A DNA stretch of 64,000 nt from Candidatus Levyibacteriota bacterium (GTDB lineage Bacteria; Patescibacteriota; Microgenomatia; Levybacterales; UBA12049): positions 69,510-133,509 of the forward strand of contig JBDRBE010000004.1 in the NCBI GenBank assembly GCA_043823085.1, read 5' to 3'. This document shows positions 934 through 58,179 of this stretch, one piece after another. Both the position numbers and the translations under genes were made by a program. Below the pieces are notes generated by a model, which saw only the letters and a list, made by a program, of their open reading frames with translations, was not told where the DNA came from and ran no database searches. The number at the start of each line of letters is the position of its first letter. Position 1 is the first letter of the stretch.

Positions 934-2175
934 ATGGCTAACTATAAGAATCTTGCAAAGTGCAGAGTCTGTCATTCAATTAATATTATTCCGGTTGTTA
1001 GAATAAAACCTCAATATATAGCTTCAACATTCGTAAAGACAAATATTAATAATCCTAAAGCAAAAATAAAAATTCCAATGACTTTAATGCTTTGCAAAAA
1101 ATGTGGTCTTGCGCAATTAAAAGAAACAGTTAACCCTGATTTATTATATACAAGTTATTTTTACCGTTCCAATATAAGCAATACTATGAATCGAGATTTG
1201 CGAGATGTTGTGGCAGATGTAATCAGTCGGGTAAAACTTAAAGATAACGATAGAGTATTGGATATTGGATGCAATGATGGACTAATGCTTACATTTTATC
1301 CTGATAATTTGGAAAGAATTGGTATCGATCCTGCTAAAAACATCGATTGGAGTTGGTTGCCAAAAACAATCAAAATTGTTAATGATTATTTTCCAAGTCC
1401 ACAACTTGAAGGAAAGAAATTTAAAATAATTTCCTCAACTGCGATGTTCTACGATTTAGATACACCAAACAAATCAGCACAACAACTTAAAAAATTGCTG
1501 GATAAAGATGGAGTAGTATGCATTCAAGTGAGTTATCTTTACGATACTATTCGCGATATGAACTTTTACGATATTTGCCACGAACATCTTGAATATTATT
1601 CATTAAAAACTCTGTCATATCTTTTGGAAAAGAATGGTTTATCAGTTTTTGATGCTTCGACAAATGCGGTAAACGGCGGGAGTCTTAGAGTTTTAGCAGC
1701 ACACAAAGAAGCAAAAAGAAAGAAATCAGACAATCTTAAATTTTTACAGCTTAGAGAAAAAGTTCTTCAATTAGAAAACCCCGAAACTTATGATACGTTT
1801 TCAAAACTTATTAAATTAAGCGGTCAAAAGGTAAAAAACTATATAGAGCAGCAAAAAGGACTAGTGATTGGGCTAGGAGCATCTACGAAGGGGAATGTTC
1901 TTCTTCAAATATGCGGAATTACTAAAAAGCTTTTGCCTTATATTAGCGAAAGAAACCCAATTAAATTTGGTATGAGAACTTTAGGAACGGATATAGAGTT
2001 AATTCCCGAAGATGAGGCAAGAAAGAAAAAACCAGACTCCATATTTGTGATTCCCTGGAATTTTAAGAATGAAATAATTGACAGAGAAAAAGAATATTTG
2101 CAACAAGGAGGAAAACTATTATTTATTATGCCGTATCCTTATGTTTTAGATAAAAACGGAGAGACGAAGCTTTAA
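934..2175 (+). CDS. Sugar C-methyltransferase (TcaB9-like: N-terminal Cys4 zinc ribbon, class I SAM-MTase, C-terminal C-MTase domain)
   Basis: CRVCHS...CKKCGLAQL zinc ribbon, VLDIGCNDG SAM motif, and C-terminal region typical of nucleotide-sugar C-methyltransferases. Paralogous to 9332..10541. Confidence 0.65.
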   Translation: MANYKNLAKCRVCHSINIIPVVRIKPQYIASTFVKTNINNPKAKIKIPMTLMLCKKCGLAQLKETVNPDLLYTSYFYRSNISNTMNRDLRDVVADVISRVKLKDNDRVLDIGCNDGLMLTFYPDNLERIGIDPAKNIDWSWLPKTIKIVNDYFPSPQLEGKKFKIISSTAMFYDLDTPNKSAQQLKKLLDKDGVVCIQVSYLYDTIRDMNFYDICHEHLEYYSLKTLSYLLEKNGLSVFDASTNAVNGGSLRVLAAHKEAKRKKSDNLKFLQLREKVLQLENPETYDTFSKLIKLSGQKVKNYIEQQKGLVIGLGASTKGNVLLQICGITKKLLPYISERNPIKFGMRTLGTDIELIPEDEARKKKPDSIFVIPWNFKNEIIDREKEYLQQGGKLLFIMPYPYVLDKNGETKL

Positions 2176-2187: not shown

Positions 2188-3303
2188 ATGAAAAAATTTC
2201 GCTACAAAAATATCCTCTTATATACAAGTTATCAATGGTGTGGAAATATGGAAGAATATTTCGTCAAAAATACAGAAAAGCTTGCCGCATTTTTACTTAT
2301 GCCGCGTATACAAACGAAAGAAAATATTCTTCGTATTTATGAGAAGGGAAAATTGGTAAAAGTACAACAGACACCGTTATCAGAAAACTTCTTTCTTTAT
2401 TATTTTCTTTGGTATTTCCATTATATTATTGCTATTTTTACGCATTTTCCAAGGAATGAAAAACTTATCGTAATTTCCGCCCATCCATACGTATTTTTTG
2501 CAACAACTTTACAAAAAATTTTTCGAGGCATTGACTTCGTGTACTATATAGCCGATTACTATCCACCAATTAATTTAACAATGAAGCTTTATGAGCGTCT
2601 TAAAAAATTCTATCATAAAGGAATAAAGTATAAGATCTATCTCGGAGACGGAGTAAATAAAATTATGAACGGAAAGGTCTTAAATACAAAAACAATCAAA
2701 ACAATTATGTTAGGGGTTAAACCAAAACATATCGTGAGAGACTTTAAAAAAACAAATCACACCATTCTTTTTGTAGGAGTTGTAAGGCCAAACGTAGGGT
2801 TGGAAATAGTATATGAATTTCTTTCGGAAAACCCACAATATGACCTTAAAATAATTGGCATTTGTGATAAGCAGCTGTATCAAAAACATCAGAAAATAAT
2901 CAATGAATATAGAATTGCCGACAGGGTATACTTTCCAAATAGGTTCTTTTTTGATAACGAGCTCAATGTGATCTCAAAAGAGTGTTTTATTGGGGTAGCA
3001 CTGTACACTATAGATAATACCAGTACAATTTATTATGCAGATCCAGGGAAAGTAAAAACATATACAGAGATGGGGTTGCCCGTAATTATGACAAAAACAT
3101 CAAGCATAGCGGCATATATTAAAGAATACAAGGCGGGTAAGCTGATCGATAGAAATCCGCAATCACTTGCTAAAGGGATAGAAGAGATTGCAAAAAACTA
3201 TAATACATATGTTGCCGGAGTGGATAAGTTGAATAAACATTTTAATTACGAAACTTACTATGAAGAGAAATTTAAGTTTTTAGAAGAAGCTTTTAACCAA
3301 TGA
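2188..3303 (+). CDS. Putative glycosyltransferase (GT-B fold, GT1/GT4-like)
   Basis: 371 aa. The C-terminal half resembles a GT-B nucleotide-sugar binding domain (..TEMGLPVIMTK..). Sits in a glycan cluster. Confidence 0.4.
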   Translation: MKKFRYKNILLYTSYQWCGNMEEYFVKNTEKLAAFLLMPRIQTKENILRIYEKGKLVKVQQTPLSENFFLYYFLWYFHYIIAIFTHFPRNEKLIVISAHPYVFFATTLQKIFRGIDFVYYIADYYPPINLTMKLYERLKKFYHKGIKYKIYLGDGVNKIMNGKVLNTKTIKTIMLGVKPKHIVRDFKKTNHTILFVGVVRPNVGLEIVYEFLSENPQYDLKIIGICDKQLYQKHQKIINEYRIADRVYFPNRFFFDNELNVISKECFIGVALYTIDNTSTIYYADPGKVKTYTEMGLPVIMTKTSSIAAYIKEYKAGKLIDRNPQSLAKGIEEIAKNYNTYVAGVDKLNKHFNYETYYEEKFKFLEEAFNQ

Positions 3304-4289
3304 AAAAGAGTAAAAAAATTAATGCTCCTCCTGTAAGCGTCATTATTCCAATGCGAAATTCTTCAACCACAGTGCTTGAAACATTAAAAAGTATTGTAAG
3401 ACAGAATTATCCGATAAGAGAAATTATTATTGTTGATAATGTTTCAAAAGACAACTCGCGGGAAATTGTTAGGGTATTTGCAAAGAAAAGTCCAATTAGA
3501 ATGCGTTTACTTTTGCAAAAAAAAGATAAGGGAGTGAGCTCTTCGTATAATTGGGGATTAAGAGAAGCAAAGACTCAATTAGTTGTTTTTTTAACATCAG
3601 ACTGTACATTGCCAACACAGGATGAATTGGAAAAATTAGTAAAACCCCTCATAAAAGATCCTTTGGCAGTTGCTTCTTATTCAACGTGTACGCTTCCCCG
3701 GTTTGTATGGGATACCTACAACTTTTGGGAAAAGTTTTTTTCAGCCAGAATGGTTGACAATATTTCTTCAGGGATGGTATTAAAGTTTGACTGTGTTAAA
3801 AAATTATCATTTTTATCCATTGGCGGCTTTGATGAAATAAATTTCGGTGGAGATAGCGCAATTGGAGGAGAAGATGCAGATCTTTCTACAAGACTACGAA
3901 AAATAGGAAAGATCGTTCGGAGCAAAGCACACTCTTTCCATCTTCATTACAAAGGACTTGACTATAATTTATTCAATATGGCAAGGAGTAGAAAGATGTA
4001 TGCTCGTTCGCAGGGTAGATTTTTACGAAAATGGGGATTAAGTATTAAAGATGCGTGTTTTGCTTTTTTACCGCGGCCGCTTATAGCAATATCTGGAATT
4101 TTTATAGTCGGACTGCCAATGCTTGTTCTGTATTCTTTTTTATATACTCCCAGAATGTTTACTACACGCGAAACCCTTTTAAACCCCCGAATTATAACAA
4201 TCCCATTTCTCAATATCGCTTTTCTTTACTATGAACTATATTGGCTGATAAGAGCATTCCTTTCTTATAAGAAAAAAGCTATAATATAA
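3300..4289 (+). CDS. Family 2 glycosyltransferase (GT-A) with C-terminal TM segments
   Basis: VSVIIPMRNS...IIVDNVSKDNS and the GGEDADLS acidic motif. Start overlaps the upstream stop (ATGA). Confidence 0.7.
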   Translation: MKKSKKINAPPVSVIIPMRNSSTTVLETLKSIVRQNYPIREIIIVDNVSKDNSREIVRVFAKKSPIRMRLLLQKKDKGVSSSYNWGLREAKTQLVVFLTSDCTLPTQDELEKLVKPLIKDPLAVASYSTCTLPRFVWDTYNFWEKFFSARMVDNISSGMVLKFDCVKKLSFLSIGGFDEINFGGDSAIGGEDADLSTRLRKIGKIVRSKAHSFHLHYKGLDYNLFNMARSRKMYARSQGRFLRKWGLSIKDACFAFLPRPLIAISGIFIVGLPMLVLYSFLYTPRMFTTRETLLNPRIITIPFLNIAFLYYELYWLIRAFLSYKKKAII

Positions 4290-4291
4290 AC

Positions 4292-5068
4292 ATGAAAACA
4301 ATTATATTGTGCGGGGGAACAGGTTATCGGTTGAAAGAAGAAACCGAATTTAAGCCAAAACCAATGGTTTATGTTGGTAATCATCCAATTCTTTGGCACA
4401 TAATGAAGACGTATGCCCATTATGGTTACAATGAGTTTATTTTAGCACTAGGGTATAAAGCAGATTATATTAAAGATTTTTTTCTTAATCAAAAGGCATT
4501 CTCGTCAGATTTTTCTTTAGATACGAAAGATCACAAAGTCAAATATTTCCTTGAAAATAGAAGTGAAATAGACAATTTTAAAATTACCTTTGTCGATACC
4601 GGTCTGGGGACTCAAGTCGGAGAAAGAATTCTTAAATGTAAAAAATATATCCCCGAAAACGATTCTTATTTTATGGTAACTTATGGCGATGGGGTAAGTA
4701 ATATCAATATAGAAAAATTAGTAGATTTTCATAAAAAGCAGAAGACAATAGGTACAATTACTGGAATTCATCCGCATTCAAGGTTTGGGTCAATTATTGC
4801 AGATAATAACAATTTAATACGTGAATTTTCCGAAAAACCGGTTATGAACGATTGGATAAATGGAGGATACATGGTATTTAATAAGAACTTTTTTCAATAT
4901 CTTAAAGAAGGTGAAATGGAGCATCCGGGACTTACAAGACTTACTAAAAAAAAGCAGCTTTCCGTATTTAAGCATGAAGGTTTTTGGTATTCGGTAGATA
5001 CCAATAAAGAACTTGAAGAGTTAAATAAGATGTGGAATCAAGGAAACCCACTCTGGAAAATATGGTAG
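4292..5068 (+). CDS. rfbF: Glucose-1-phosphate cytidylyltransferase
   Basis: MKTIILCGGTGYRLKEETEFKPKPMVYVGNHPILWHIMKTYAHYGYNEFILALGYK is near-canonical RfbF/DdhA N-terminus. 258 aa is the typical length. Confidence 0.85.
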   Translation: MKTIILCGGTGYRLKEETEFKPKPMVYVGNHPILWHIMKTYAHYGYNEFILALGYKADYIKDFFLNQKAFSSDFSLDTKDHKVKYFLENRSEIDNFKITFVDTGLGTQVGERILKCKKYIPENDSYFMVTYGDGVSNINIEKLVDFHKKQKTIGTITGIHPHSRFGSIIADNNNLIREFSEKPVMNDWINGGYMVFNKNFFQYLKEGEMEHPGLTRLTKKKQLSVFKHEGFWYSVDTNKELEELNKMWNQGNPLWKIW

Positions 5069-6201
5069 ATAATAAAAAAAGCGGTGTAGAAAATAAAGAT
5101 ATTGAATACATCCATGAAAAAGCAAAACAGGAATTTGAAAAACTTTCAGGCAGTAAACTGCTTTTGACGGGCGCTGGTGGTTTCTTAGGATATTACTTTA
5201 TTAAGTCAATTCTTGCATGGAATAAAAATAATCCTGATAAATTAATACAGCTTATAGCCTTAAGTAATTTTAGAAACGGTATTCCGCAATGGCTTGATTC
5301 TTTAAAAGGATGGGAAGATTTTAAAATCATTCAAAAAAATATTGTAAAATACTCACTTCCTAAAAGTTCAACGTTTGATTATATTATCCATGCTGCATCA
5401 ATAGCTTCTCCAACTTTTTACCGTTTATTCCCAATTGAAACAATTAATGCAAATGTGCAAGGTTTATATAAAATATTAGACTACATGGTTTTAAGAAAAA
5501 AAACCAGGCAGCCGGTAAAGGGTTTGTTATTTTTTTCTTCAAGCGAAATATACGGAGATCCAAGCGAGGGAGATATTCCAACTCCAGAAACCTATCGCGG
5601 TACTGTTTCATGTACAGGGCCAAGAGCTTGTTATGACGAGTCAAAAAGATTTTGTGAGACGCTATGCGTGAACTATGTAAAAGTTCACAGCCTTCCTATA
5701 AAAGTTGCGCGTCCATTCAATAATTATGGACCTGGAATGAAGATTACAGATGGGAGAGTGATTGCTGATTTTGCAAAAAATATTTTGGAAAATAAAGATA
5801 TTGTTATGTTTTCCGATGGTAGTCCATCAAGAACTTTTTGTTACGTTGCCGATGCAATTGTCGGTTACTTAAAAATTCTCGTACAGGGAAAAAATGGCCA
5901 AGCATATAATATTGGAGTTAAAAAACCGGAAGTATCAATGAAAACTTTAGCCGAAAAAATGGTAAAAATAGGAAGAGAAGATTTCAAATTTACGAAAAAA
6001 ATAATTCTTCAAAAAAGTAAGGACAAGAATTATCTGACAGATAATCCCAATCGCCGTTGTCCGGTAATTGATAAGGCAAGAAAAGAAATAGGATATGACC
6101 CGGAAATTTCTCTTGATGATGGCTTGCAAAGAGTTATGCATTGGTATCATGAGAGATATTTTAAAAATCAAAAATCAAAAATCAAAAATCAAAAGCAATG
6201 A
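5062..6201 (+). CDS. NAD-dependent SDR epimerase/dehydratase, UDP-glucuronate decarboxylase-like (UXS/ArnA-C-like)
   Basis: LLTGAGGFLGYY Rossmann motif and CYDESKRF (YxxxK catalytic region resembling UXS CYDEGKR). Start chosen at the second Met; the ORF track starts at 5032. The 3' end carries (AAAAATC)4 and overlaps the ugd start. Confidence 0.6.
   Translation: MVDNKKSGVENKDIEYIHEKAKQEFEKLSGSKLLLTGAGGFLGYYFIKSILAWNKNNPDKLIQLIALSNFRNGIPQWLDSLKGWEDFKIIQKNIVKYSLPKSSTFDYIIHAASIASPTFYRLFPIETINANVQGLYKILDYMVLRKKTRQPVKGLLFFSSSEIYGDPSEGDIPTPETYRGTVSCTGPRACYDESKRFCETLCVNYVKVHSLPIKVARPFNNYGPGMKITDGRVIADFAKNILENKDIVMFSDGSPSRTFCYVADAIVGYLKILVQGKNGQAYNIGVKKPEVSMKTLAEKMVKIGREDFKFTKKIILQKSKDKNYLTDNPNRRCPVIDKARKEIGYDPEISLDDGLQRVMHWYHERYFKNQKSKIKNQKQ
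6163..6190 (+). repeat. Tandem heptamer (AAAAATC)x4 at the 3' end of the SDR gene and the SDR/ugd junction
   Basis: Four perfect 7-nt copies read directly from the sequence. They encode the KNQKSKIKNQK tail. Confidence 0.9.
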
Positions 6202-7553
6202 AAATAGCTGTTATTGGTACAGGTTATGTGGGTTTGGTAACTGGAGTTTCGATGAGCTTACTAGGCCATAAGGTGTTTTGTGTTGGAAGAGACAAGGGAA
6301 AAATAAAAAAGATCAATAACGGTTTTACCCCTTTTTATGAACCGGGACTAGATGAGCTTTTAAAAAAAACGCTATCTGGTAAATTGTTTGAGGCAACAGA
6401 TGATTTTAAAAAAGCACTTTTAAATGCCGAGGTAATTATTATTGCAGTCGGTACTCCAACTGTCGAAAATAAAATAGATCTTTCGGCAATTAAAGAAGTA
6501 TCAAGGCAAATCGGTAAAGAATTAAAAAACAGCAAAGAATACCAGATTGTAGTTGTTAAATCTACCGTTGTTCCAACAACAACCCAGAAGGTTGTTTTGC
6601 CCATTCTTGAAAAATATTCAGATAAAAAGATCGGAGAATTTGGTCTTTGTATGAGTCCTGAGTTTTTGCGGGAAGGAAATGCAGTCGAAGATGCAACAAA
6701 TCCCGATCGTATTGTGATAGGTCAGTTTGATAGAAAAAGTGGTAAACAATTTGCAAAGGTTTATACAAAAGTTTTATGTCCTAAAGTCTTCACTAATTTG
6801 GCAACTGCAGAAATGACAAAATATGCAGCCAATGCATTACTTGCAACACTGATTAGTTATTCAAATGAAATTGCTCGGATAGCACAAGAGACCGAAGGAG
6901 TAGATGTTATTGATGTTTGGAAAGGTGTTCATCTTGATTCAAGACTAACTCCAAGAATTAATAATAAAATTGTTATACCCGGCATTATCAATTATATACT
7001 TTCGGGCTGCGGATATGGAGGAAGTTGTTTTCCAAAAGATACAAAAGCATTGGCGGCATATGCAAAAGGAATTGGCGTCAAAGCAGAACTTATTAATAGT
7101 GTTATAAATATTAACCAGACTCAACCGTCCCGGATGGTTTTTCTTTTAAAACAAGCCTTAGGAAATTTAAAGAATAAAAAAATTGCTGTTTTAGGATTAA
7201 CGTTTAAACCAAATACAGACGATCTTCGCGAGTCGCCATCAATTTTTGTTATAAAAGAGCTTTTCAAAGAGGGAGCGGAAGTTGTTTGTCAAGATCCTGT
7301 CATTGATAACCCTAATAAATTAGAATTAGGAGATTTTAAAGTAACGCTTGCAAAGTCGGCGGATGAGGCATTGAAAAATGCGGACGGTGCGTTAATAATG
7401 ACTGCATGGAATGAATATAAAAAACTTAACCCATCAGTTTTTAAAAACCTTATGAAAACCCCAGTTGTTATTGATGGAAGACGTATATTTTCTCCTGATA
7501 GCTTTCTCCAAGCAGGAATTTTATATAAAGGAATAGGATATTGCGGGAATTAA
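6198..7553 (+). CDS. ugd: Nucleotide-sugar dehydrogenase (UDP-glucose 6-dehydrogenase family)
   Basis: MKIAVIGTGYVGLVTG N-terminus and GYGGSCFPKD catalytic Cys motif. 451 aa. Confidence 0.8.
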   Translation: MKIAVIGTGYVGLVTGVSMSLLGHKVFCVGRDKGKIKKINNGFTPFYEPGLDELLKKTLSGKLFEATDDFKKALLNAEVIIIAVGTPTVENKIDLSAIKEVSRQIGKELKNSKEYQIVVVKSTVVPTTTQKVVLPILEKYSDKKIGEFGLCMSPEFLREGNAVEDATNPDRIVIGQFDRKSGKQFAKVYTKVLCPKVFTNLATAEMTKYAANALLATLISYSNEIARIAQETEGVDVIDVWKGVHLDSRLTPRINNKIVIPGIINYILSGCGYGGSCFPKDTKALAAYAKGIGVKAELINSVININQTQPSRMVFLLKQALGNLKNKKIAVLGLTFKPNTDDLRESPSIFVIKELFKEGAEVVCQDPVIDNPNKLELGDFKVTLAKSADEALKNADGALIMTAWNEYKKLNPSVFKNLMKTPVVIDGRRIFSPDSFLQAGILYKGIGYCGN

Positions 7554-7565
7554 TTTATTAATTTT

Positions 7566-8420
7566 ATGAAATTGCTGGATTTAACTATTTCTGCTTTAAA
7601 AAATGCCTATGAGGTTCATGAAAAATTAGGCAAAAACGGTTTAGAAAAACTAAAAAAAAATAGATTTGGAGAAACGGCTTTGAGAGGTGATTTCCAGGCA
7701 GAGGAGGCAGTTCTAAACGTTTTGAGAGTAAAGAAGGTACCAATTAGAGTAATATCGGAAGAGCATGGTGTAGTTGATATCGTTAAAAATCCTGTTTTAC
7801 TTGGTATTCTTGATGGGCTAGATGGTTCAAATAGATATGAAGCCTATTGGAAAGGCGATAAAAATGCACGTTACGGAACAATGTTTGCGATATTTGACAG
7901 TATTAACCCGCGTTACGAGGATTATTTAACAAGCGGCATAATGGAACATCCAACAAAGAGATTATTTATTGCCGCTAAAGGAAGAGGAGCTTTTTTAGTT
8001 AGTTTAACTAATAGTGCTAAATCTGGAATTGAAGTTTCGAAAGAAACAGATTTTAGCAATAAGACAAAGGTTGAAATAGACGCTTATGAAAAAGCGGCGC
8101 ATTTTCCTTTTATAAAAAGAGTATTTATTGAGAGATTACCTAAAGGAATAAATTTTAAATGTTTATTGTCAACGGCTGTCCATTATGCTGATTTGGCATC
8201 CGGCGCGGCAGATATTGTTTTAGAATGTACATATAAAGGAAATTTGGAGAGCGCAGTTGCCTACGGGTTGGTTACCGAAGCAGGAGGTGTAATGGTAGAT
8301 ATTAATGGGGAAAGTTTTTCTAAGAAACGTTATTTAGAATTCGGACAGAAAGAACATGTCCCAATTATAACTGCAGCAACGAAAGAACTGGCAGACAGTT
8401 TTATTAAAACTATTAGCTAA
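7566..8420 (+). CDS. Inositol monophosphatase-family phosphatase (sugar-phosphate phosphatase?)
   Basis: VISEEHG, ILDGLDGSNRY (DPxDG-like) and a C-terminal EAGG motif, which is the IMPase/CysQ motif set. Confidence 0.5.
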   Translation: MKLLDLTISALKNAYEVHEKLGKNGLEKLKKNRFGETALRGDFQAEEAVLNVLRVKKVPIRVISEEHGVVDIVKNPVLLGILDGLDGSNRYEAYWKGDKNARYGTMFAIFDSINPRYEDYLTSGIMEHPTKRLFIAAKGRGAFLVSLTNSAKSGIEVSKETDFSNKTKVEIDAYEKAAHFPFIKRVFIERLPKGINFKCLLSTAVHYADLASGAADIVLECTYKGNLESAVAYGLVTEAGGVMVDINGESFSKKRYLEFGQKEHVPIITAATKELADSFIKTIS

Positions 8421-8428
8421 TATTTACC

Positions 8429-9316
8429 ATGACTGATTATCAAGAAGGAGCTAAAGCTTTTCAAAAAGAAGTATCAGGAGAGAGAACAAACAGTGTTTAT
8501 GCATATGCGATTGGAAGAAACCCGGAAATTAAAAATACTCCATCAGATAATTTCAAGGGAATTATTTCAAGCACATTAAAAATAATAGATACTCTTGAAG
8601 AATTTGGAGAAGAAACAGCGCATAATTTAACAATTCCGCGTGCAATTGCAGATGAAATTGGATTAATATGGGATTTTTCCGGACCGGGAACTTACGATAA
8701 ACCTTTTAAAGAGGATCGATACAAAGATCTTCCGTGGTCAAAATCGATGGATCAAAAGCGTTTAAGCCATACAGCTGTTTTGGAAAGAGCAATTGTTGAA
8801 TCGATAAAAGGAAATAGTTTTAGAGGATCGCTTGAAAATATCGTTGAAACGAAACACAGATTAAAAAAAGCCATAGGAGAAGTTGGGCCATATATATTAT
8901 ATAACGGTATACCAGAAGAAAATAGTGTAGTGAAGGATGTTCTTTCGCGTGAAGGAGTTGTAATTCCGGCGGATAAAGTAATTATTCCAAATTTTAAAAT
9001 TGATAATACACTTGATCAAGTAAAATCATTCGAATGGCCAAAACACGTTGAAAAGGGTAAGGCAATCGCTCTTGTTTCACATGCTCCTCATCTGGCTCGA
9101 ATAATTGGGCTTATAAATTATTTTAACCCTTTTTCAAAAGGAACAAAAATATACCTTTTTCCTTTACCGACTCCTCAAGAAGGAAGAGAAGAGTATGCGA
9201 AGATGGAAATTAGCGGACTTTTACATAATATGTTTGACTTAGAAAAATCAAACTTAATGCCTGCATACGAATATATGATTGGTGAAAAAAAATTGCAATT
9301 TTCCAAAGAACCGTAA
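8429..9316 (+). CDS. Hypothetical protein
   Basis: 295-aa ORF, co-directional and tightly spaced. No motif recognised. Confidence 0.45.
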   Translation: MTDYQEGAKAFQKEVSGERTNSVYAYAIGRNPEIKNTPSDNFKGIISSTLKIIDTLEEFGEETAHNLTIPRAIADEIGLIWDFSGPGTYDKPFKEDRYKDLPWSKSMDQKRLSHTAVLERAIVESIKGNSFRGSLENIVETKHRLKKAIGEVGPYILYNGIPEENSVVKDVLSREGVVIPADKVIIPNFKIDNTLDQVKSFEWPKHVEKGKAIALVSHAPHLARIIGLINYFNPFSKGTKIYLFPLPTPQEGREEYAKMEISGLLHNMFDLEKSNLMPAYEYMIGEKKLQFSKEP

Positions 9317-9331
9317 AAATATTTTTTTCTT

Positions 9332-9448
9332 ATGACAAAATGCAGAGTATGCAATACAATAATCCAAAAATTTTTTTCCTTAGGCAAGATGCCTTTTGTT
9401 AATGCTTTTTTGGAGAAGAGTGAAATAGAAGAAGAAAAAAAAAATTGA
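9332..9448 (+). CDS. N-terminal Cys4 zinc-ribbon fragment of a TcaB9-like C-methyltransferase, separated from its body by a frameshift at an A10 tract
   Basis: MTKCRVCNTIIQKFFSLGKMPFVNAFLEKSEIEEEKKN* aligns to the N-terminus of the 934 paralog. A stop follows immediately after the A10 run (9435-9444). Confidence 0.6.
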   Translation: MTKCRVCNTIIQKFFSLGKMPFVNAFLEKSEIEEEKKN

Positions 9449-9479
9449 TCTATCTATTGGTTTTTGCCCAAACTGCTAT

Positions 9480-10541
9480 TTGGTCCAATTAATAAAAACA
9501 GTCGATCCAAAAGATCTTTTTACTAATTACCTTTACTTTTCTTCGGTCACAAAATCAATAGTAGATCATAGTAAAAAAACTTCAGCCTGTTTTATAGACA
9601 GATTCAAATTAAACCATTGTAATCTCGTTCTTGAAATTGGAAGCAACGATGGCGTTAATCTGCAATTCTATAAAGAAAAAGGGATGAACGTCCTGGGAAT
9701 TGACCCTGCAAAAAATATTGCAGAAATAGCCAATAAAAAAGGGATAAAAACAATTCCCGAGTTTTTTAACTTGGAATTGGCGAAAAAATTATCTTCGCAA
9801 GGGCTAAAAGCAGACTTGATTTATGGAGCTAATGTTTTTGCTCATGTTCCAAACATCGTAGATTTTGTAAAAGGTGTAAAAACTATCTTAAAAGATAACG
9901 GGACTTGCGTGTTTGAATTTCCTTATCTCAAGGGTTTACTTGAGAATAAATTTGACACTATTTATCATGAACATGTTTTTTATTATTCACTTATAGCATT
10001 AAAGAATTTATTTAATAAGGTAGATTTGGGAATATACGATGTTGAACAAATTCCAATGCAAGGTGGTTCACTTCGAATATTTATATCTCACAAAAAAAGG
10101 TTTAATGTTTCCCAAAATGTAAAAAAACTGCAGGAAAAAGAAATAAAAGAAAAATACAATAAGCTGGAAAGATATATGAAAATGGCAGAGGATGTTAATA
10201 ATTTAAAAAAAGAAACTATTAAATTTCTTAAAGATTTAAAAAGTAAAAATAAAAGTATCGCTGGGTATGGCGCTCCGGCAAAAGGAATAATTCTTCTTAA
10301 TTTTTTTAAAATAAGTAGATATCTTAACTATATTGTTGATAAATCTCCTGTAAAGCAAAATAAATATGTTCCGGGCATTCATTTTTTAATTTATTCTCCA
10401 TCCAAAATTAGGCAAGAAATACCCGACTACCTTTTTATTTTTCCGTGGAACATAAAAAGTGAGATATTGTCGGAATACTCCTGGTTTAAAAAACAAGGAG
10501 GAAAGTTTATTATTCCAATTCCCAGGCTACAAGTAATTTAA
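9480..10541 (+). CDS. Sugar C-methyltransferase body (TcaB9-like). True gene is probably 9332..10541 with a frameshift at the A10 tract.
   Basis: VLEIGSNDG SAM motif and YHEHVFYYS, paralogous to 934..2175. The upstream frame reads ..KKKKKIDLSIGFCPNCYLVQL, which completes the zinc ribbon. Confidence 0.7.
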   Translation: MVQLIKTVDPKDLFTNYLYFSSVTKSIVDHSKKTSACFIDRFKLNHCNLVLEIGSNDGVNLQFYKEKGMNVLGIDPAKNIAEIANKKGIKTIPEFFNLELAKKLSSQGLKADLIYGANVFAHVPNIVDFVKGVKTILKDNGTCVFEFPYLKGLLENKFDTIYHEHVFYYSLIALKNLFNKVDLGIYDVEQIPMQGGSLRIFISHKKRFNVSQNVKKLQEKEIKEKYNKLERYMKMAEDVNNLKKETIKFLKDLKSKNKSIAGYGAPAKGIILLNFFKISRYLNYIVDKSPVKQNKYVPGIHFLIYSPSKIRQEIPDYLFIFPWNIKSEILSEYSWFKKQGGKFIIPIPRLQVI

Positions 10542-10562
10542 CATGACACCTTTGTTAGAAAA

Positions 10563-11447
10563 ATGAAAGCGAATGTTATACAAAAAGAATTCCCTAATTT
10601 AAAAGTTTCTGTTTTATCAGTGGGAAAACATAAAAACAATCCTTTAAGAAATGAAGACGGATGGGTAGCAAAAGTAAATACGTTTGCAGTTATAGATGGT
10701 TCTGCTCCTCGTGTAGATTTAAGATTTGAAGGGAAAAGTAGTGCAAGATTTGCAACAGATGTGGTAAGAAAAGTTTTACTAACAACACCGCCGGATGTTA
10801 ATGGAAAAGAGTTAGTCTCAGAAATTACAACTGCTCTTAATAGAGAAATTAATAGAGAAGGCTATAGAAAGGTTATTCAAAAAAACAAAGAGGCAACTCC
10901 TGCGGCACTTTTTACAACCGCTCGAATTGTTGGAGATAAGGTTATCGTTACCGGGCTTGGGGATATTTCCTGTAGAATAAATGAGAAAGTAATTCACTCG
11001 GATCATTTCAAGTCGGAAGATTTGATGACAGAAAAAAGAATTTTGGCAATGAAAAACGCCAAAAAGAAAAATCCTTCAATTTCGGATGAAGAATTGGTTG
11101 CAATTGGCCAGAAGACAATAAAAGATGATTTAATATATCAGGTTAAAAATTACTTTAACAATTCAAATAGCGACTTAGGTCTTGGCATTATTGATGGGGA
11201 AGAAGTGCCGGAAAAATTCATAAAAGAGTACAAATATGATTTAAAAGATGTTAAAACATTGGAGTTATTTTCAGATGGCTATTATAGTTTCCCAGACTTT
11301 CCAAGTATTGATTTATGGGAAGAAAAATTTTTTCAAGGAGAAAAAGAAGATCCTTTAAGATGGAATAAATATCCGGCCGTTAAGGCAGTTCTTCCAGGTC
11401 AGTTTTCAGATGACAGAACAATTTTAATTGTTGCTTTCAATAAGTAG
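10563..11447 (+). CDS. PP2C-like (PPM fold) protein, possibly a degenerate phosphatase
   Basis: FAVIDGSAP, ARIVGDKVIVTGLGDIS and LFSDGYYS resemble PP2C motifs I, II and the C-terminal motif, but the canonical DGHGG is altered. Confidence 0.35.
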   Translation: MKANVIQKEFPNLKVSVLSVGKHKNNPLRNEDGWVAKVNTFAVIDGSAPRVDLRFEGKSSARFATDVVRKVLLTTPPDVNGKELVSEITTALNREINREGYRKVIQKNKEATPAALFTTARIVGDKVIVTGLGDISCRINEKVIHSDHFKSEDLMTEKRILAMKNAKKKNPSISDEELVAIGQKTIKDDLIYQVKNYFNNSNSDLGLGIIDGEEVPEKFIKEYKYDLKDVKTLELFSDGYYSFPDFPSIDLWEEKFFQGEKEDPLRWNKYPAVKAVLPGQFSDDRTILIVAFNK

Positions 11448-11453
11448 AAAAAA

Positions 11454-13820
11454 ATGAAGATACGATCACCTAAGATTATTTTAATAATAATAATTCTTCT
11501 TTTGACTATCATGCCTTTCTTTTGGCTTAAACCCGGCGAGATGGATTTAGGTGGCGATGGAGGCAGGCTTTACTTTTATGATCCGGTAAACCAGATTAAA
11601 AATTTGGCTTTATATAATAGGTGTGCTTTTGGTATAGGAACAATTGATTCTCCTTTTTCATACCTTCCTTTTATTGGAATACTGGCAATAATAAAGACAA
11701 TTGTTACGTCTTCGTATATTCTTATTTGTTTTCATAACGCATTAAAATTAGCTGTTGGTTTTCTTGCCGTTTATGCGATCGTAAAGCAGTTTATTGGCGG
11801 ATTTAATAAAAATAATTCCCTTGGTGTGGAACTTGCCTCAATGATTGCCGGGCTTTTTTATCTTTCCACCCCTGCGATGACGGAGAATTATGTAAAAGCT
11901 ATTGCAACTCATGATCAAGTATTTCTGAATCCTCTCATGTTTTACCTTTTATTGCGGTTTGCTCTTTCAGGAAAAATGAAATATATGTGGATTGCGCTTA
12001 TTGTAGGTCTTGTTTTTTCAGTGAGCTTTAGTTATATGGGCGCACCTTCCTTTTTTGCTTTTTACCCTCTTGCATTTATTTTTATTCTTTTCTATGGCAC
12101 TTTTATTAGGCATGTTAAGTTTCCATGGAGAAAATTACTGCTTACTTTTGTTTGGTTTTTTGGGCTGCATGCTTTTCATTTAATTCCTGAAGCTTCCGAT
12201 CTATTTACTTTTGGAAGCAATAGCAATACAAGAATGTTTAATATCGAAAGTATAACATCGCAAATCGGTTACTTTTATGCAATATTGCATATTCCAAAGA
12301 CGAGTTTTTATCTTTTCTCTTATTCCTTAACAAGATTTTTGGGACAAGTTGCCTTCGTTGTCCCTTTAATAGTTGTATTGGGATTGATATTTAATAAGAA
12401 GAAAGAAAAGACGATGCTTCTTGTTTTTGTATTCTTTTTAGTGACTTTCTTTTTTGTAACTGGGAAGGTAACGGTTGTTGGCATAAAAATTTATGAATGG
12501 TTTTTTCATGTGCCCGGCTTTTCAATGTTTCGAAATTTTTATGGGCAATGGCAATTTGTATATTATTTCTTTTATTCTCTTCTTTTTGGTTTGGCATTTT
12601 ATTCTGTGATATCTAGAATAAAGTCAAGAATCTTTTTAAAATGTCTTTTTCTGTTTCTGGTTATCTTTTTTACAATAAGCTCGTGGCAATTTATTAATGG
12701 AAGTCTTGTAAATCCATTTAGAGAAGATGCAAATGGGGTGAAAGCAGCAATTATTATGGATCCAAATTATGAAAACACGCTTAAATTTATTCGTTCAATG
12801 CCTGATGATGGAAAAATACTTGTTCTTCCTTTTAGCGATTCCTATATGCAAGTAATTCATGGATTAAATAACGGAGTCTACGTGGGACACTCGACAATTG
12901 GTCAGTTGACAGGAAAAAACGATTTTGCAGGTTATCAAGGCATTTTTCCCTATAGTGATACTTTTTGGCAATTAAGTAAAGAGAAAAACTATAAAGCGAT
13001 AAAAAAAATGTTTGGAATACTAAATATCCATTATATATTTTATAATTCTGACACAAGGATTTATGATACAGCATTTCCTGGTCGGCCATACTCGCCTAAT
13101 TATGTCCGAAAATTTATGCCTCCAGATCAGGCGGGGTATAAGGAATATATCGGAAACCTCTCGAGCGAAAAAATCTTTGAAAGCGGTTTTTATAGTGTTT
13201 ATAAGTTGGAAGATAAATCTTCGCTTCCTCATTTTTACACAGCCCAAAACATTCTTTTCTATAAAGATGATCCCAAATTGACAGGTTATGGAAAAACACT
13301 TGCCTTTTTTAAGGGAAATATTCCGGAAAGACCAGTTTATATAGAAAGTCAAAATTGCAAAAAATTGTTTAAGCAAGAGTTTTGTAGGGAAGATTCTAAT
13401 TTTCCAATGACTGATAGTCCAAAAATCCAATTCGAAAAAATTAATCCAACAAAATATAAATTAACTGTATCTAATGCAAATAACCCTTATATTCTCGTAT
13501 TCTCCGAAGCGTTTCACAGTAACTGGAAGATTTATGCCGGAGTTGCAAAAGAAAAGAATACATTCTTTGGTAAAGATATTTTTGAGACATTTAGTTTAAA
13601 CTCAATATCAAACGATAGACATTTTATTGCAAATGGTTATGCAAATGGTTGGTATATTAAACCGCAGGATTTAGGAGGAAAGCAAGAGTATGAACTTATA
13701 ATAGAAATGACAGGACAAAGAATATTCTATGTGAGTTTAATTTTTTCAGGCATTATATTCATAATCTTTGTTCTTCGGGGAATAATATTTTTTGATATAA
13801 TAAAAAAACGAAAAAAATGA
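11454..13820 (+). CDS. Polytopic membrane protein, YfhO-like architecture (putative GT-C glycosyltransferase), paralog A
   Basis: Many predicted TM helices. Conserved first-loop motif PFFWLKPGEMDLGGDGGRLYFYDP, a large extracytoplasmic domain, C-terminal NGYANGWYIKP, and a final TM anchor. Shared with 14139..17795. Confidence 0.6.
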   Translation: MKIRSPKIILIIIILLLTIMPFFWLKPGEMDLGGDGGRLYFYDPVNQIKNLALYNRCAFGIGTIDSPFSYLPFIGILAIIKTIVTSSYILICFHNALKLAVGFLAVYAIVKQFIGGFNKNNSLGVELASMIAGLFYLSTPAMTENYVKAIATHDQVFLNPLMFYLLLRFALSGKMKYMWIALIVGLVFSVSFSYMGAPSFFAFYPLAFIFILFYGTFIRHVKFPWRKLLLTFVWFFGLHAFHLIPEASDLFTFGSNSNTRMFNIESITSQIGYFYAILHIPKTSFYLFSYSLTRFLGQVAFVVPLIVVLGLIFNKKKEKTMLLVFVFFLVTFFFVTGKVTVVGIKIYEWFFHVPGFSMFRNFYGQWQFVYYFFYSLLFGLAFYSVISRIKSRIFLKCLFLFLVIFFTISSWQFINGSLVNPFREDANGVKAAIIMDPNYENTLKFIRSMPDDGKILVLPFSDSYMQVIHGLNNGVYVGHSTIGQLTGKNDFAGYQGIFPYSDTFWQLSKEKNYKAIKKMFGILNIHYIFYNSDTRIYDTAFPGRPYSPNYVRKFMPPDQAGYKEYIGNLSSEKIFESGFYSVYKLEDKSSLPHFYTAQNILFYKDDPKLTGYGKTLAFFKGNIPERPVYIESQNCKKLFKQEFCREDSNFPMTDSPKIQFEKINPTKYKLTVSNANNPYILVFSEAFHSNWKIYAGVAKEKNTFFGKDIFETFSLNSISNDRHFIANGYANGWYIKPQDLGGKQEYELIIEMTGQRIFYVSLIFSGIIFIIFVLRGIIFFDIIKKRKK

Positions 13821-14152
13821 AAATTACTATATTTTTTTTGAGGAAGTATAAATCAGTTATCATGACTTTGGTTGTGTTGGGAATTATTTCGGATATATTC
13901 TTGATTAGGTTTAAATCAGACTTAATTACGTTTGCGATTCTTGCATTGGTATTTTTTTCCTTTAAATTTTATAAAATTACGAGTAAGATGACGTTCCTTC
14001 TTGGTATTATTCCTACTGTCATTATTTTCCTTTACTTTCTTGTGGATTCAGAATCTCTTTTTGTCGAAAAGGCAGCTATTTGGCTTTTTTTACTATTAGG
14101 GTTAGGTATTATTCAGGAACTATTCATATCCAAAAAAAATGAAAAAATATAG
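13817..14152 (+). CDS. Small 4-TM membrane protein (GtrA-like flippase candidate)
   Basis: 111 aa with four hydrophobic segments. Paralogous to 33899..34249. Wedged between two YfhO-like genes with overlapping stop/start. Confidence 0.45.
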   Translation: MKITIFFLRKYKSVIMTLVVLGIISDIFLIRFKSDLITFAILALVFFSFKFYKITSKMTFLLGIIPTVIIFLYFLVDSESLFVEKAAIWLFLLLGLGIIQELFISKKNEKI

Positions 14153-17100
14153 ATTTGCAATTATTTTAGCAGTTATCCTATTTTTTATTCCATTTTTTTG
14201 GTTAAAACCCGGAGAAATGAATCTGGGTGGCGATTCGGGAAGACTTTATTTTTATGATCCTGGTTCGTATCTTAATTTACGCGTACTTTATAATTATTTA
14301 GGAAGCGGTAACGGCACAGAAATAATTTACTACACGCATTTTCCTTATGTTGCTCTGTTGTTCTTCATCAAACTCATTTTACAATCACCAACAATGCTTA
14401 TTTCTTTTTTTAATGGTCTTACCTTAAGCGTTGCATTCTTTTTTGTCTATCTTTTCGTAAAAGAACTCCTGAGTACAAATGAAAATTCAATTAAATCAGG
14501 ATTCGTTGAGATGTCTTCAATTCTTGCCGGTCTTTTTTACATCCTTTCGCAAATTTCTATTTATAGCGGTTGGGAGAGGCCAATTACTACTTTCAATCAA
14601 ATGTTTCTTAATCCTTTTATGGCATTTTTACTTCTAAAGTTTATGTTAACCCAAAAAAAAGAATATCTAATTTCAGCATTACTAGCAACATTTGTTTTTT
14701 CTGTAAACTTTTCTTTAGTTGGCGCCCCGCCATTTTTTGCTTTTTATCCAATAACAGTACTTTTCCTCTTTCTTTATGCGAAGTTGGTTAGGAAGGTATC
14801 TTTTAAATGGAAATCATTTGTTGCTGGTATAATTCTTTTTCTATTTTTACATGCCTTCCATTTAGTTAATACAATAGATGGTGTTTTCTCTCTTAGCTCC
14901 TCTTATAATTTGACAGTTTTTGCTCTGCAGGGTGAAGCTTCGCGTAATGGGCTTGATTATTTTATTTCTGTGGCGAGTAATATAAAAGCAAGTAGAATTT
15001 GGATGAGTCTTGCTCAGTTTCAAATACAGGCTTACTTTGCGATATTTATTATCTTTCCGGCAGTTTTAGTTGTTTCTTTTTTCCTAAATAAGGGAAAAAC
15101 GTTACTTTTTACAGGATTATTTTTTCTTATCGTTTTGTTCTTTGCTTCTGCAATTACTCAAACTGGCTTTTTCTTCTATAGACAATTGTTTTTAATACCC
15201 GGTTTTAATATGTTTCGTAATTTTCATGGACAGTGGTCATATGTTTTCTTTTTCTTTTACGCATTACTTTTTGGGCAAGCAATCGCCATCGTTGCAAACA
15301 AATCAAGCAAAAGAATCGCCTTGGCTATTTTTACTATTTCTAGCATGGTAATTATTGGGTTTGGCACACCGCTTTTTACAGGAAGTATCTCAATTCCGAT
15401 GGACGCGGAGAAGACAGTGCGTACTAGTTTTAAAATGGATCCAGCCTACGAGCAGGTCTTACAATACTTTAAATCAAATCTAGTTGATGGAAAGGTTCTG
15501 ATGTTTCCGCTAACAGACCATGGTTATCAAATCTTCAAGGGTAAAGAAGGTGGAGTTTATAAAGGGCTTCCGACAATTTCAATTTTAGATGATAAGTCGG
15601 ATTTTGGAGGATACGAAACATTGGGTCCATTTAAAGATATTTTTTTAACTTCCATCAAAAACAATGACTATGAAACTTTTAAAAAAATGCTTTCGGCGAT
15701 GAATATCAAATGGATATTCTATAATTCCGATCCATATATTTATGGCGAACCTTTTTTATCAACGTTGTATGGTTTTGTGTCAAATTACTCACCGAAAGAC
15801 CAACAAGAATATAAGTCATTTATCGAAAAGTTACCGATTAATAAATTAATTGATTTTGGAGAAAAATATCATATCTATTCGGTTAATGACGATATATATT
15901 TCCCTCATATTTATACTTCGACAGATATAGTGTTTACTACCAACCAAATTAATTTGATGTTCGATCCTGAATTTCAAAAAGATATGTATCGGACATTACT
16001 CCCTGTGGAAAGCTCTACAAGTAAAAAAGATTCTATGATTATCTATGGTTTACAAAAATCATTCTTAACCCAAATTAAAGACAATCGTCATTTTCATACA
16101 CATAATCCTTTTATTGGTAGAGCGCTTGATGATTTATTTTATCCGCTAGTAATAGTTAGGGAAAAATTTGATCTTGCTAGACTTAGAAATAAACCCGATC
16201 AGTATCTTGATTTTTCACTCTTTTTGCTTTCGAAAAGAATTCAAGAATTGAATCGTTTTGGAATAAATATGAAAGCCGGTCAGGGTTCTTGGCAAGAACC
16301 CTCCCCGTGGGATTTAAAGAGATGGTTTTCATATAATAGTTGGAATGCAAGCCTAGTGCGTTATGAAAACGCAGTGAATGCGATTATTGATTGGATTGAT
16401 AATTCTGATATTCCAGAAGAAAAGAAAATGCTTAATAAATTAAAAGTTAATGAACAGTTTTCTAAACATGAGCTTCACCTAATAAGTGATGTATATGATT
16501 TTAATAAAGAGGATAACGAAAAAAAATACCTACTTTCTGTTGTTAACAGAATGTTTGAAAGACTTTATAAGAAAGTAAACGTTACAGTTAGCGATCCTTC
16601 TTTATGTATGTATAAATTGCCGACTTTCACCAACCGCGAGGGAGAATATACAGTTTATTTTCGCGGAAAAAACATTCCAGACATTGATCAATCTCAGATA
16701 TTTACTAGGCTCGGAGATCAAACATCAAAAACTCAATTTGCAAACATTAGGGTTGATGAGAGGAGTGAAGCCCAAGTGATTTTAAAGATACCAGTTTCAA
16801 ACATTGTAAAAGAAGAAAAATGGAGTAGTAGCGGCGTCCCAATAGAAGGTTTGAATGGTATTACCTCGTTATCTTTTAGTAATGGATTAGGAGGTTCAAT
16901 AGATGGTCTTACTCTGCAAATTCCAAACTGGATACCGGATTATGCCTATCTTATTTCTTTTGACTATAATACCAATGGCGATGATTTTATTTTTTCATTT
17001 GCTGATAAAAAATCTTCAGAGAAGGCTTTTAAAAAGGTTAATCAAAGATTATTATTCGAAAAAAGATTAAATGCAAAAAATTTTAAGACCCATCAGTCAA

Positions 17101-19888: not shown

Positions 19889-20835
19889 GACTTAATCCTA
19901 ATTGCTTAAGCTGCGGTTCTTCAAAAACATGCAAGACATATAAAACAAAAGATCGAATGTTTGGGGGCAATAAGATTTTTAATTATTTCGAATGCAAAAA
20001 TTGCTCTGTTTGCTTCTTGTATCCTCAGCTATCATTGAAGGAGTTTGGAAAATACTATCCGAGCTCAAAATATTATTCATATTCAAATAGTAATAAAAAA
20101 GATTTTTTTGGTACGATAAGGGCATATTTAGTGCGTAGTTATTATAAAGAGAATTTTTTTTTCAGATTATTTTCTTTCTTCGTGATAAGTGTTCCGGCAA
20201 TTCCAAGCGCGCCAATTGGAAAAATATTAGATGTAGGATGCGGAACTGGTGAAACCCTTTCTCTTTTAAAAGAAGTGGGGTGGAATGTTTACGGATTAGA
20301 TTTGGATAAAGATGCAATAAATATAGCGAAAAAACGAGGAATTACAGCTAAAATAGGCAGTTATGAAGAAATAGAATCTTTTCCTAAAGATTATTTTGAT
20401 GCAATTCGTTTATATCATGTTATAGAGCACATTGGCGATCCTTCAGTTGCACTCAAACTTATTTATTTACGCCTTAAACCCGGCGGACAGCTAATTTTGG
20501 GAGCACCAAATTACAATAGTATAGTCAGAAAAATATTTGGCTCTTTTTGGTACAATCTTGATGCTCCTAGGCATCTATTTCTTTTTTCGCCAAAAAATTT
20601 AATAGCACTTGGAAAAAAAAACGGATTCATAGATCCTCATGTTGATTATTTTGCAGCTGGCGGCATTTTGGGAAGCATACAATATATAATAAATGAAAAA
20701 TTTAATAAAAAGGTTGATTTGTTGTCGAATATTTTTTTAGTTTTGCTTTTTTTTATTCCAGAATTGTTGACAAATAAACTGTCGGCAGGGGATATTTTTA
20801 CTCTAAGAATGTACAAAAAAAAGTATAGAGTGTGA
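19885..20835 (+). CDS. Class I SAM-dependent methyltransferase with an N-terminal Cys-rich zinc ribbon
   Basis: CLSCGSS...CKNCSVCF followed by ILDVGCGTGETL. Confidence 0.65.
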   Translation: MRLNPNCLSCGSSKTCKTYKTKDRMFGGNKIFNYFECKNCSVCFLYPQLSLKEFGKYYPSSKYYSYSNSNKKDFFGTIRAYLVRSYYKENFFFRLFSFFVISVPAIPSAPIGKILDVGCGTGETLSLLKEVGWNVYGLDLDKDAINIAKKRGITAKIGSYEEIESFPKDYFDAIRLYHVIEHIGDPSVALKLIYLRLKPGGQLILGAPNYNSIVRKIFGSFWYNLDAPRHLFLFSPKNLIALGKKNGFIDPHVDYFAAGGILGSIQYIINEKFNKKVDLLSNIFLVLLFFIPELLTNKLSAGDIFTLRMYKKKYRV

Positions 20836-25158: not shown

Positions 25159-26286
25159 ATGATTATTGATAGGCTAAAAATAATGACAATTTTAGGAACA
25201 CGTCCTGAAATAATCAGGCTTTCTAGAATATTGCCGAAGATGGACGAATATGTTAATCATAAAATCGTATTTACGCAACAAAGTTACGATTATGAATTAA
25301 GCAAAATCTTTTTTGAAGAATTAGAACTTCGAGATCCGGATTATTTACTTGAAGTGAGATCGGACACACTAGGTGGACAAATAGGTAATATTTTAAAACA
25401 GTCGGAAGAAGTAATGCTTAAAGAAAAACCAGATGCAATTCTAATTTTAGGCGATACTAACAGTTCTTTGTCGGCAATAATTGCAAAACGTCTTGGAATT
25501 CTGGTATTTCATATGGAAGCCGGGAATAGGTGTTTTGACTTTGAGGTGCCAGAGGAAACAAATAGAACGCTTGTTGATGCTATTAGTGATTATAATTTAC
25601 CATACACTCAAAGAGGAAAAGAATACTTAATTCATAATGGTTTGCATCCAAGAAGCATTTTTGTTACAGGTTCTCCGCTTGCTGAAGTTTACAGTTATTT
25701 TAAAAATAAAATTGAAAAATCAACTGTTCTTAATGATTTAAATTTAAAATCAAATAAATATTTTGTTGTCAGCGCTCATAGAGAAGAAAATGTAGATAAT
25801 CCTGATAATCTAAAAGAGTTAGTTAATTCCCTAAATTTTATAGCAAAATATTATAAATTACCTATTATTATTTCTCTTCATCCAAGAACGAAAAATAGAC
25901 TCAGCAAAAATACGGAGATTAATCCTCTAATTAATCTTCACAAGCCATTTGGAATTTTAGAATATATAAAACTAGAGCAGAATTCACTTTGTACGATTTC
26001 AGACAGCGGAACCATACAAGAGGAATCTTCTATGCTTAATTTTAACGCAATTCAAATCAGAGCAAATTTAGAAAGGCCTGAGGCTTTTGATAAAGGCGTA
26101 ATTATTCTTGCAGGTTTTAATAAAAACTCAATTATTAATGCAGTAGAAATGACTGTTAAAGAAAAAGAGAAGACAATAGTTCCAGACGATTATAAAGATA
26201 CAAATGTTTCAAGTACAGGAGTAAAACGTATGAGGGGACTTACAGCTGTTCAAAAATATCACAATAAAAAACCTGCGGGTTTTTAA
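25159..26286 (+). CDS. UDP-N-acetylglucosamine 2-epimerase, non-hydrolysing (WecB/Cap5G/FnlC family)
   Basis: IMTILGTRPEIIRLS and HMEAGNR motifs. 375 aa. Confidence 0.75.
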   Translation: MIIDRLKIMTILGTRPEIIRLSRILPKMDEYVNHKIVFTQQSYDYELSKIFFEELELRDPDYLLEVRSDTLGGQIGNILKQSEEVMLKEKPDAILILGDTNSSLSAIIAKRLGILVFHMEAGNRCFDFEVPEETNRTLVDAISDYNLPYTQRGKEYLIHNGLHPRSIFVTGSPLAEVYSYFKNKIEKSTVLNDLNLKSNKYFVVSAHREENVDNPDNLKELVNSLNFIAKYYKLPIIISLHPRTKNRLSKNTEINPLINLHKPFGILEYIKLEQNSLCTISDSGTIQEESSMLNFNAIQIRANLERPEAFDKGVIILAGFNKNSIINAVEMTVKEKEKTIVPDDYKDTNVSSTGVKRMRGLTAVQKYHNKKPAGF

Positions 26287-49560: not shown

Positions 49561-49605
49561 CGTCAACGGTTTGTTTAGATTTGTTTTATCCGTTATAATC
49601 TTTGT

Positions 49606-51943: not shown

Positions 51944-51944
51944 C

Positions 51945-52026
51945 TCATTGTTCAATTGTTTCATTGCTTCATTGTTGGATAACTTAGGGATTTTAACAAT
52001 GGAACAATTTTAACAATGCAACAATC
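51945..52026. promoter_or_regulatory. Intergenic array of inverted heptamer repeats (CATTGTT x3-4 on the left, AACAATG x3-4 on the right) upstream of the manC-like gene
   Basis: ctCATTGTTCAATTGTTtCATTGcttCATTGTTgg ... ttAACAATGgAACAATTttAACAATGcAACAATc read directly. Confidence 0.5.
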
Positions 52027-52034
52027 ATACGTTT

Positions 52035-53117: not shown

Positions 53118-53120
53118 TTT

Positions 53121-53786: not shown

Positions 53787-53833
53787 GAGTTTAAAGACTT
53801 GCTTTTTTGCTTTTTATTGCCTATCATTTAATA

Positions 53834-55771: not shown

Positions 55772-55782
55772 AGGATTTCTTC

Positions 55783-58165: not shown

Positions 58166-58179
58166 CTTAATTAATATAG

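Follow-up and report, generated by a model that had tools for sequence, protein, structure and literature searches.

A methyltransferase gene divided at a run of ten adenines

The window (the whole stretch of DNA analyzed, 64,000 bp) comes from a Candidatus Levyibacteriota MAG, on a contig of 431,128 bp, and contains one uninterrupted run of ten adenines (A10), the sole A/T run of at least 10 bases in the 64 kb (Table 1). As the earlier note had reported, a first open reading frame (ORF1) stops just after this run: it extends from the ATG at 9332 to the TGA at 9446-9448 and encodes 38 amino acids (MTKCRVCNTI...EEEKKN; full reading MTKCRVCNTIIQKFFSLGKMPFVNAFLEKSEIEEEKKN). Its second observation, that the other frame runs on into the body of a methyltransferase, was likewise borne out. 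The +1 frame is open from 9429, where it begins KKKKKIDLSIGFCPNCYLVQLIK (longer reading KKKKKIDLSIGFCPNCYLVQLIKTVDP...), and reaches its stop at 10539-10541; its earliest start codon is the TTG at 9480. The NCBI record treats the 353-aa ORF that begins with this TTG (MFH1833011.1) as an ordinary "class I SAM-dependent methyltransferase" and carries no frameshift flag. ORF1 is without a CDS annotation in the same record: the locus tags run without a gap from ABH816_02475 through _02480 to _02485, and there is no entry for a 38-aa product. No further lesion was detected in either half of the split gene.

Table 1. Positions of the split gene and of related genes in the window
Feature	Position	Strand	Evidence or content
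A10 homopolymer	9435..9444	+	sequence; A9 in the same-strain Logan assembly; single indel relative to L081
ORF1, 38 codons plus TGA	9332..9448	+	first CxxC, N-terminal half of the zinc-binding domain
Downstream frame, +1 relative to ORF1	9429..10541	+	second CxxC, SAM-binding domain, C-terminal PF08484
Annotated CDS MFH1833011.1, 353 aa, TTG start	9480..10541	+	NCBI; without all four zinc cysteines
Intact second C-methyltransferase, same three-domain family	934..2175	+	Pfam; 31% identity to the repaired product
Sugar nucleotidyltransferase and 4,6-dehydratase-type epimerase/dehydratase	4292..6201	+	PF00483; PF01370/PF16363

The tract lies within codons 35-37 of 402 and its length sets the reading frame. 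When we edited the tract in silico, A9 gave a single ORF of 402 aa and A12 a single ORF of 403 aa, while A8 and A11 ran into 52/53-aa dead ends; A8, A10 and A11 are all out of frame. The suggestion that a length change of one nucleotide would restore the ORF therefore holds for the loss of one A (A9) and fails for the gain of one (A11), with a gain of two (A12) working again. In the intact A9 allele the site reads GAA AAA AAA ATT (E35, K36, K37 and I38), and the full-length product has the junction peptide EIEEEKKIDLSIGF.

The frameshift site, codon 37/38, is inside the zinc domain. The first cysteine pair (C4/C7, 9341-9352) is encoded in ORF1 and the second (C45/C48, CPNC, 9465-9476) in the +1 frame, so that the break falls inside PF08421 (residues 4-63), between the two CxxC pairs, and not between a zinc ribbon and the catalytic body as had been proposed. 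For the same reason ORF1 holds only C4/C7 and not the complete Cys4 ribbon attributed to it. Since CPNC is upstream of the TTG at 9480, the 353-aa product as annotated lacks the cysteines altogether (0/4).

An independent start of the downstream ORF was ruled out, as the TTG at 9480 lies past all four zinc cysteines and no ortholog is split. Shine-Dalgarno-like motifs (GGAG/GAGG/AGGA, at most 22 nt upstream) were found at 1 of 45 gene starts in the window, where leaders are A/T-rich; with the motif nearly absent, a Shine-Dalgarno test says nothing on an internal start of the second ORF. Translation initiation in this Levyibacteriota genome seems to depend little on Shine-Dalgarno pairing. Promoter-like sites were at chance level (10, against 7.4 +/- 3.0 expected).

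The enzyme and its gene neighborhood

By its Pfam and PDB matches, the A9-repaired product is a full-length sugar 3-C-methyltransferase of the TcaB9/TylC3 type, in agreement with the TcaB9-like assignment of the earlier note. It carries a "putative zinc binding domain" (PF08421, residues 4-63, profile positions 1-62 of 62), a class I SAM-methyltransferase domain (PF13489, residues 99-232) and a "C-methyltransferase C-terminal domain" (PF08484, residues 241-397), the last with weak similarity to HAD/beta-phosphoglucomutase proteins. The ORFs of the window as deposited carry PF08421 in two pieces only. Over residues 2-401 the repaired product matches 4rv9 ("D-mycarose 3-C-methyltransferase", 4.4e-75), TcaB9 (3ndi, 7.6e-64) and 5t64 ("sugar 3-C-methyl transferase", 4.8e-62), and the three-domain layout is common to all of them. 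The cysteine pairs of 4rv9 and 3ndi have their aligned counterparts in C4/C7 and C45/C48. The Y-x-E-H motif, whose Tyr, Glu and His we take to be the active-site (catalytic) residues as in TcaB9, is kept (IYHEH here and in 4rv9, IYDEH in TcaB9). The window gene belongs to a glycan cluster of a Candidatus Levyibacteriota (CPR) bacterium, whereas the enzymes of the 4rv9/TcaB9 type belong to an actinomycete antibiotic pathway; unlike 4rv9, 3ndi and 5t64, the deposited window sequence has its zinc domain divided by an extra A.

The homology to the intact paralog at 934..2175, which the earlier note had described as full-length once the frames are joined, does extend end to end and spans the junction; the relationship is nevertheless a distant one, at 31% identity. 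The nucleotidyltransferase and dehydratase-type enzymes encoded upstream would make an NDP-4-keto-6-deoxyhexose, the substrate class of this methyltransferase family, judging from the known pathway. The upstream genes thus fit an NDP-4-keto-sugar pathway, in which the window enzyme is predicted to methylate C-3.

The first ~56 kb of the window form a glycan-biosynthesis island, very large for a small-genome CPR bacterium. Positions 1-56000 encode many GT1/GT2/GT4 glycosyltransferases, at least seven SAM methyltransferases, DegT aminotransferases, an FdtA-like isomerase, a formyltransferase, a PIG-L deacetylase, a PMT_2-type transferase and a Bac_transf initiating transferase. Inside this cluster, positions 8429-19888, surrounding the methyltransferase, include six genes (295, 294, 788, 111, 1218 and 703 aa) without a Pfam match, and the 295- and 294-aa products also lack an NCBIfam match. 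Gene order near the methyltransferase is partly conserved in the closest relative inspected (L165, 74% identity), where a similar set (302, 813, 837, 118, 1224 and 681 aa) flanks the methyltransferase ortholog. The region is a conserved block of large proteins without assigned function.

Comparison with a second assembly of the same strain

Clustered at 90%, the 353-aa protein of the annotation has a single companion, a 402-aa protein from Logan (P0121) that is exactly the A9-repaired protein. It is encoded on contig SRR27458547_2600 (34,147 bp), which is identical to window positions 6166-20541 save for A9 in place of A10. The gene's intact state is A9, and an A9 allele that encodes the full-length protein exists for the same strain. 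The check on tract lengths proposed earlier thus has an ambiguous, half-positive outcome: public assemblies show two of them, A10 (MAG, OFF) and A9 (Logan, ON), as a consensus error would also produce. The predicted products of A7, A8, A11 and A12 and the 38-aa ORF1 product were all absent from the protein collection, the short ones perhaps because they are below its length cut-off.

We compared the MAG with SRR27458547_2600 and three more contigs of the same run, which together cover window positions 1-40313, 43267-49766 and 50271-63740 (60,283 of 64,000 bp). Across these 60,283 bp the two assemblies differ in two places only, the A-tract and a patch of substitutions at 26216-26251. The A9/A10 difference is the sole indel and coincides with the window's longest homopolymer. 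All 45 other runs (A/T of at least 8, G/C of at least 6) agree wherever Logan covers them (36 of them at or below position 40313), including all six 9-base runs (7652-7660, 20154-20162, 20613-20621, 27944-27952, 28398-28406 and 32590-32598). A general homopolymer problem in the MAG was ruled out, since its other long runs match Logan.

Within Logan, the proteins of this strain are present in SRR27458547 alone, so the MAG was probably built from those data or from a sibling set. Near-identical strains were not detected in GTDB representative genomes (at most 62% protein identity) or JGI metagenomes (at most 71%), and same-strain material came from SRR27458547 only. Exact matches were absent for four proteins of the window (P0001, a 375-aa WecB-like protein, and proteins of 1074 and 391 aa); these products either are peculiar to the MAG or run off the ends of Logan contigs.

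The second difference comprises six substitutions in 36 bp (26216, 26219, 26228, 26232, 26234 and 26251), where the MAG reads C, G, G, G, G and C. They fall within 13 codons, in the C-terminal helix of a WecB-type UDP-GlcNAc 2-epimerase (25159..26286, MFH1833022.1), and all six are nonsynonymous (Logan to MAG: K353T, V354G, L357R, I358M, M359R and K365Q). All six are also of one class, A:T in Logan and C:G in the MAG. The Logan version fits the family better, scoring 286.4 bits against PF02350 with the alignment ending at profile position 346 of 347 (MAG: 280.9 bits, position 339) and reaching position 361 of 366 in TIGR00236 (MAG: 337). Two-colour Illumina chemistry detects A through two dyes, one common to A and C and the other to A and T, and G gives no signal (PMC8002175); by our reasoning, losing the T-shared signal would yield exactly A to C and T to G. 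An error burst in the MAG consensus is the probable explanation of the patch, a second haplotype the alternative; we favor an error because the substitutions are clustered, of a single class and all damaging. Both MAG-specific differences worsen conserved proteins, a pattern expected of blind errors.

Orthologs and origin of the run

We collected 160 orthologous loci from genomes and metagenomes, 159 of which span the tract site. All 159 have a single frame through it. The motif E-K-K-[Y/F]-D-L is conserved among the orthologs, and 39 loci carry A8 (GAA AAA AAA T..); none carries a longer run. In the lineage of the window the residue after E-K-K is Ile (ATT) and not Tyr or Phe, which makes the run A9, one base above these 39 orthologs. 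Codon use in the window favors AAA (80% of Lys) and GAA (74% of Glu). Given this bias and the conserved E-K-K, the run is the expected encoding, a by-product of codon choice and not a special tract.

In L165 the run is interrupted (GAA AAA AAG TTT). The same locus (2901-4109, Logan SRR22387797) has an in-frame A9 of its own (AAA AAA AAA, K28-K30) a few codons upstream in the same zinc-domain loop, and nine-base A-runs are thus evidently tolerated there. Among the 160 loci, one ortholog (L018, CAYHPG010000009.1) has an in-frame stop at about codon 73 (..YFSST*TSF..) and is otherwise full-length, which gives a rough base rate of ~1/160 for broken copies of the gene in public assemblies.

Long A/T runs are rare in the window, which has a G+C content of 33%. 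Runs of at least 10 were observed once against 20.7 +/- 6.6 expected from dinucleotide-preserving shuffles (20-fold depletion), and matches of at least 9 were observed 8 times against 49.5 +/- 11 in the same shuffles (6-fold depletion). The distribution of A/T run lengths (7, n=120; 8, n=36; 9, n=6; 10, n=1) has a sharp ceiling at 9 despite the low G+C content and the 80% use of AAA for lysine. This depletion suggests selection against slippery runs. The window's one 10-mer is the run that breaks a gene.

Origin of the tenth adenine

With little more than even confidence, we attribute the tenth A to a +1 homopolymer-length error of the MAG consensus, technical and not biological. The gene would then be an ordinary intact NDP-sugar 3-C-methyltransferase of 402 aa whose true run, in the loop between the zinc cysteine pairs, is A9. 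The additional A would have been introduced during sequencing, assembly or polishing and would not be a state of the organism's DNA, and the split into a 38-aa ORF and a 353-aa CDS would be an annotation consequence of one base. Such an error had been the null hypothesis of the earlier note. It predicts that two assemblies differ at the longest homopolymer, and the remaining evidence, at the level of assemblies, leans toward it: an independent assembly has A9 between otherwise identical flanks, the difference is the only indel, and the epimerase patch likewise departs toward a worse family fit in the MAG. The strain's occurrence in a single Logan run, with the MAG probably from the same or sibling data, points the same way, as do the orthologs, all in frame and none above A8. 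The gene shows no decay, its cysteines and YxEH motif being conserved relative to 4rv9 and TcaB9, and a tract that is a by-product of E-K-K and AAA usage in a window depleted in long A/T runs is also consistent with an error. Platform behavior adds to this, since the accuracy of short-read sequencing falls at homopolymers of at least 8 (PMC11140927).

Against a consensus error stands the agreement of all 45 other long runs, the six 9-base ones included. Consensus-level indel errors are also uncommon in Illumina assemblies. The error-like reading of the patch is itself interpretive, and if both assemblies share reads, their disagreement could mean that both lengths occur at appreciable frequency. 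The case resembles homopolymer consensus errors that split genes in MAGs in its one-base difference at the longest run, in a gene that is intact at this site in the independent assembly and in all orthologs, and in its otherwise identical flanks, and differs from them in that the other 8-9-base runs agree, so that the error would not be systematic.

Rather unlikely, in our assessment, is a real but non-adaptive slippage variant, in which part of the population or a sub-strain carries an A9 to A10 insertion that knocks out the enzyme. The loss would be tolerated because the cell can do without the glycan modification or because other enzymes of the cluster partly stand in, and A10 would be a recent loss-of-function allele, reversible in principle and not a selected switch. 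Such a variant would account for two assemblies of one strain, identical in the flanks, that differ in tract length; the longest homopolymer is the most mutable site, the absence of secondary decay suits a very recent event, and the substitutions at 26216-26251 could come from another haplotype present in the sample. The same evidence, however, serves the consensus-error reading, from which a slippage variant is indistinguishable at the assembly level. The patch moreover resembles an error (one class, all nonsynonymous, worse family fit) and not a haplotype, and products of the other tract lengths A7, A8, A11 and A12 are not on record.

If A10 were real, a little full-length enzyme could still come from transcriptional -1/+2 slippage or from ribosome sliding on the A-run. 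Transcription indel rates climb exponentially with the length of A/T runs (PMC5574713). Rescue of this kind would be inefficient, since A10 needs -1 or +2 and +1 insertions predominate at A/T runs: in Buchnera, 151 of 157 insertions and 16 of 57 deletions in transcripts were in homopolymers, with -1 events much rarer (PMC5574713). The closest precedents are the poly(A) frameshifts of Buchnera and Blochmannia, which are reported to be partly rescued by transcriptional slippage (Tamas et al. 2008, cited in PMC5574713; PMC3017870). They resemble the window gene in an AT-rich small genome, a frameshift at a run of ~10 A and an otherwise intact gene; the window gene differs in needing -1 or +2 in place of the common +1, and its A10 is only putative at the DNA level.

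A genetic switch is a less likely source of the extra A than a consensus error or a trivial slippage variant. The earlier note had put forward a phase-variable gene. Such a contingency locus, which we regard as improbable, would flip frequently between A9 (ON) and A10 (OFF) by slipped-strand mispairing, so that cells bearing a C-methyl branch on a surface glycan coexist with cells lacking it, for instance to evade phages or to vary host-cell attachment. Of the tests of that proposal, the one on coexisting lengths came out ambiguous, with an ON and an OFF length seen for one strain in a comparison confounded with consensus error; those of enrichment and conservation failed. The class of the gene, surface-glycan tailoring, and its 5'-proximal tract match known phase-variable genes, and the gene is inside a very large glycan cluster. 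The comparators are the homopolymeric-tract gene Cj1295 of C. jejuni (PMC3068675) and pgtA of Neisseria (PMC2193922), which resemble the window gene in being sugar-tailoring genes with a homopolymer inside the coding sequence close to its 5' end; for the window gene, one in-frame and one out-of-frame length have been seen. By contrast, the run of the window gene is poly-A of 9 or 10 arising from Lys/Glu codons and not a maintained poly-G/C tract; the window's genome is depleted in long runs, no ortholog is OFF, and switching within a population would be hypothetical.

Several results speak against a maintained switch. Long A/T runs are depleted and not enriched (1 vs 20.7 for at least 10 bases, 8 vs 49.5 for at least 9), the tract is accounted for by the conserved E-K-K and the AAA/GAA bias, and the run is only one base above the A8 of 39 orthologs and is interrupted in L165. 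None of the 159 orthologs is out of frame at the site (0/159), only one step from the ON length has been seen, and assembly error could also account for the apparent heterogeneity.

A-runs are slippery for RNA polymerase and tRNA-Lys, and this slipperiness is what speaks for programmed recoding of a natively A10 gene, by ribosomal frameshifting or transcriptional realignment as in dnaX and IS elements. Such recoding is very improbable and effectively refuted by the in-frame A9 allele of the same strain and by the orthologs, in which the frameshift is conserved in 0 of 159. Also against it, stimulatory RNA structure is lacking downstream (z-score -0.13), and, read from the sequence, the AAT codon before the stop cannot re-pair in the +1 frame.

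Implications

The consequence is mainly one of curation, the deposited MFH1833011.1 being without its zinc domain. A lone frameshift that falls on a MAG's longest homopolymer says little in favor of phase variation, and what the intact allele is can be decided from an independent assembly of that run family. That A9 and A10 are real, reversible heterogeneity, with a Levyibacteriota population switching a surface-glycan C-methyltransferase by poly-A slippage in what would be the first SSR phase variation described in CPR, is in our view improbable. No report of SSR phase variation in Patescibacteria was found in the literature searched, where "phase variation" and "Patescibacteria" co-occur incidentally only. 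If it were true, with A9 and A10 both above technical stutter in reads, it would be a first, modest case of a CPR bacterium that switches glycan tailoring through an SSR; the mechanism itself is already very well known and would not be new, and a tie to phage escape or host-cell attachment would be possible. The sugar 3-C-methyltransferase that the organism encodes is almost certainly a normal one of 402 aa.
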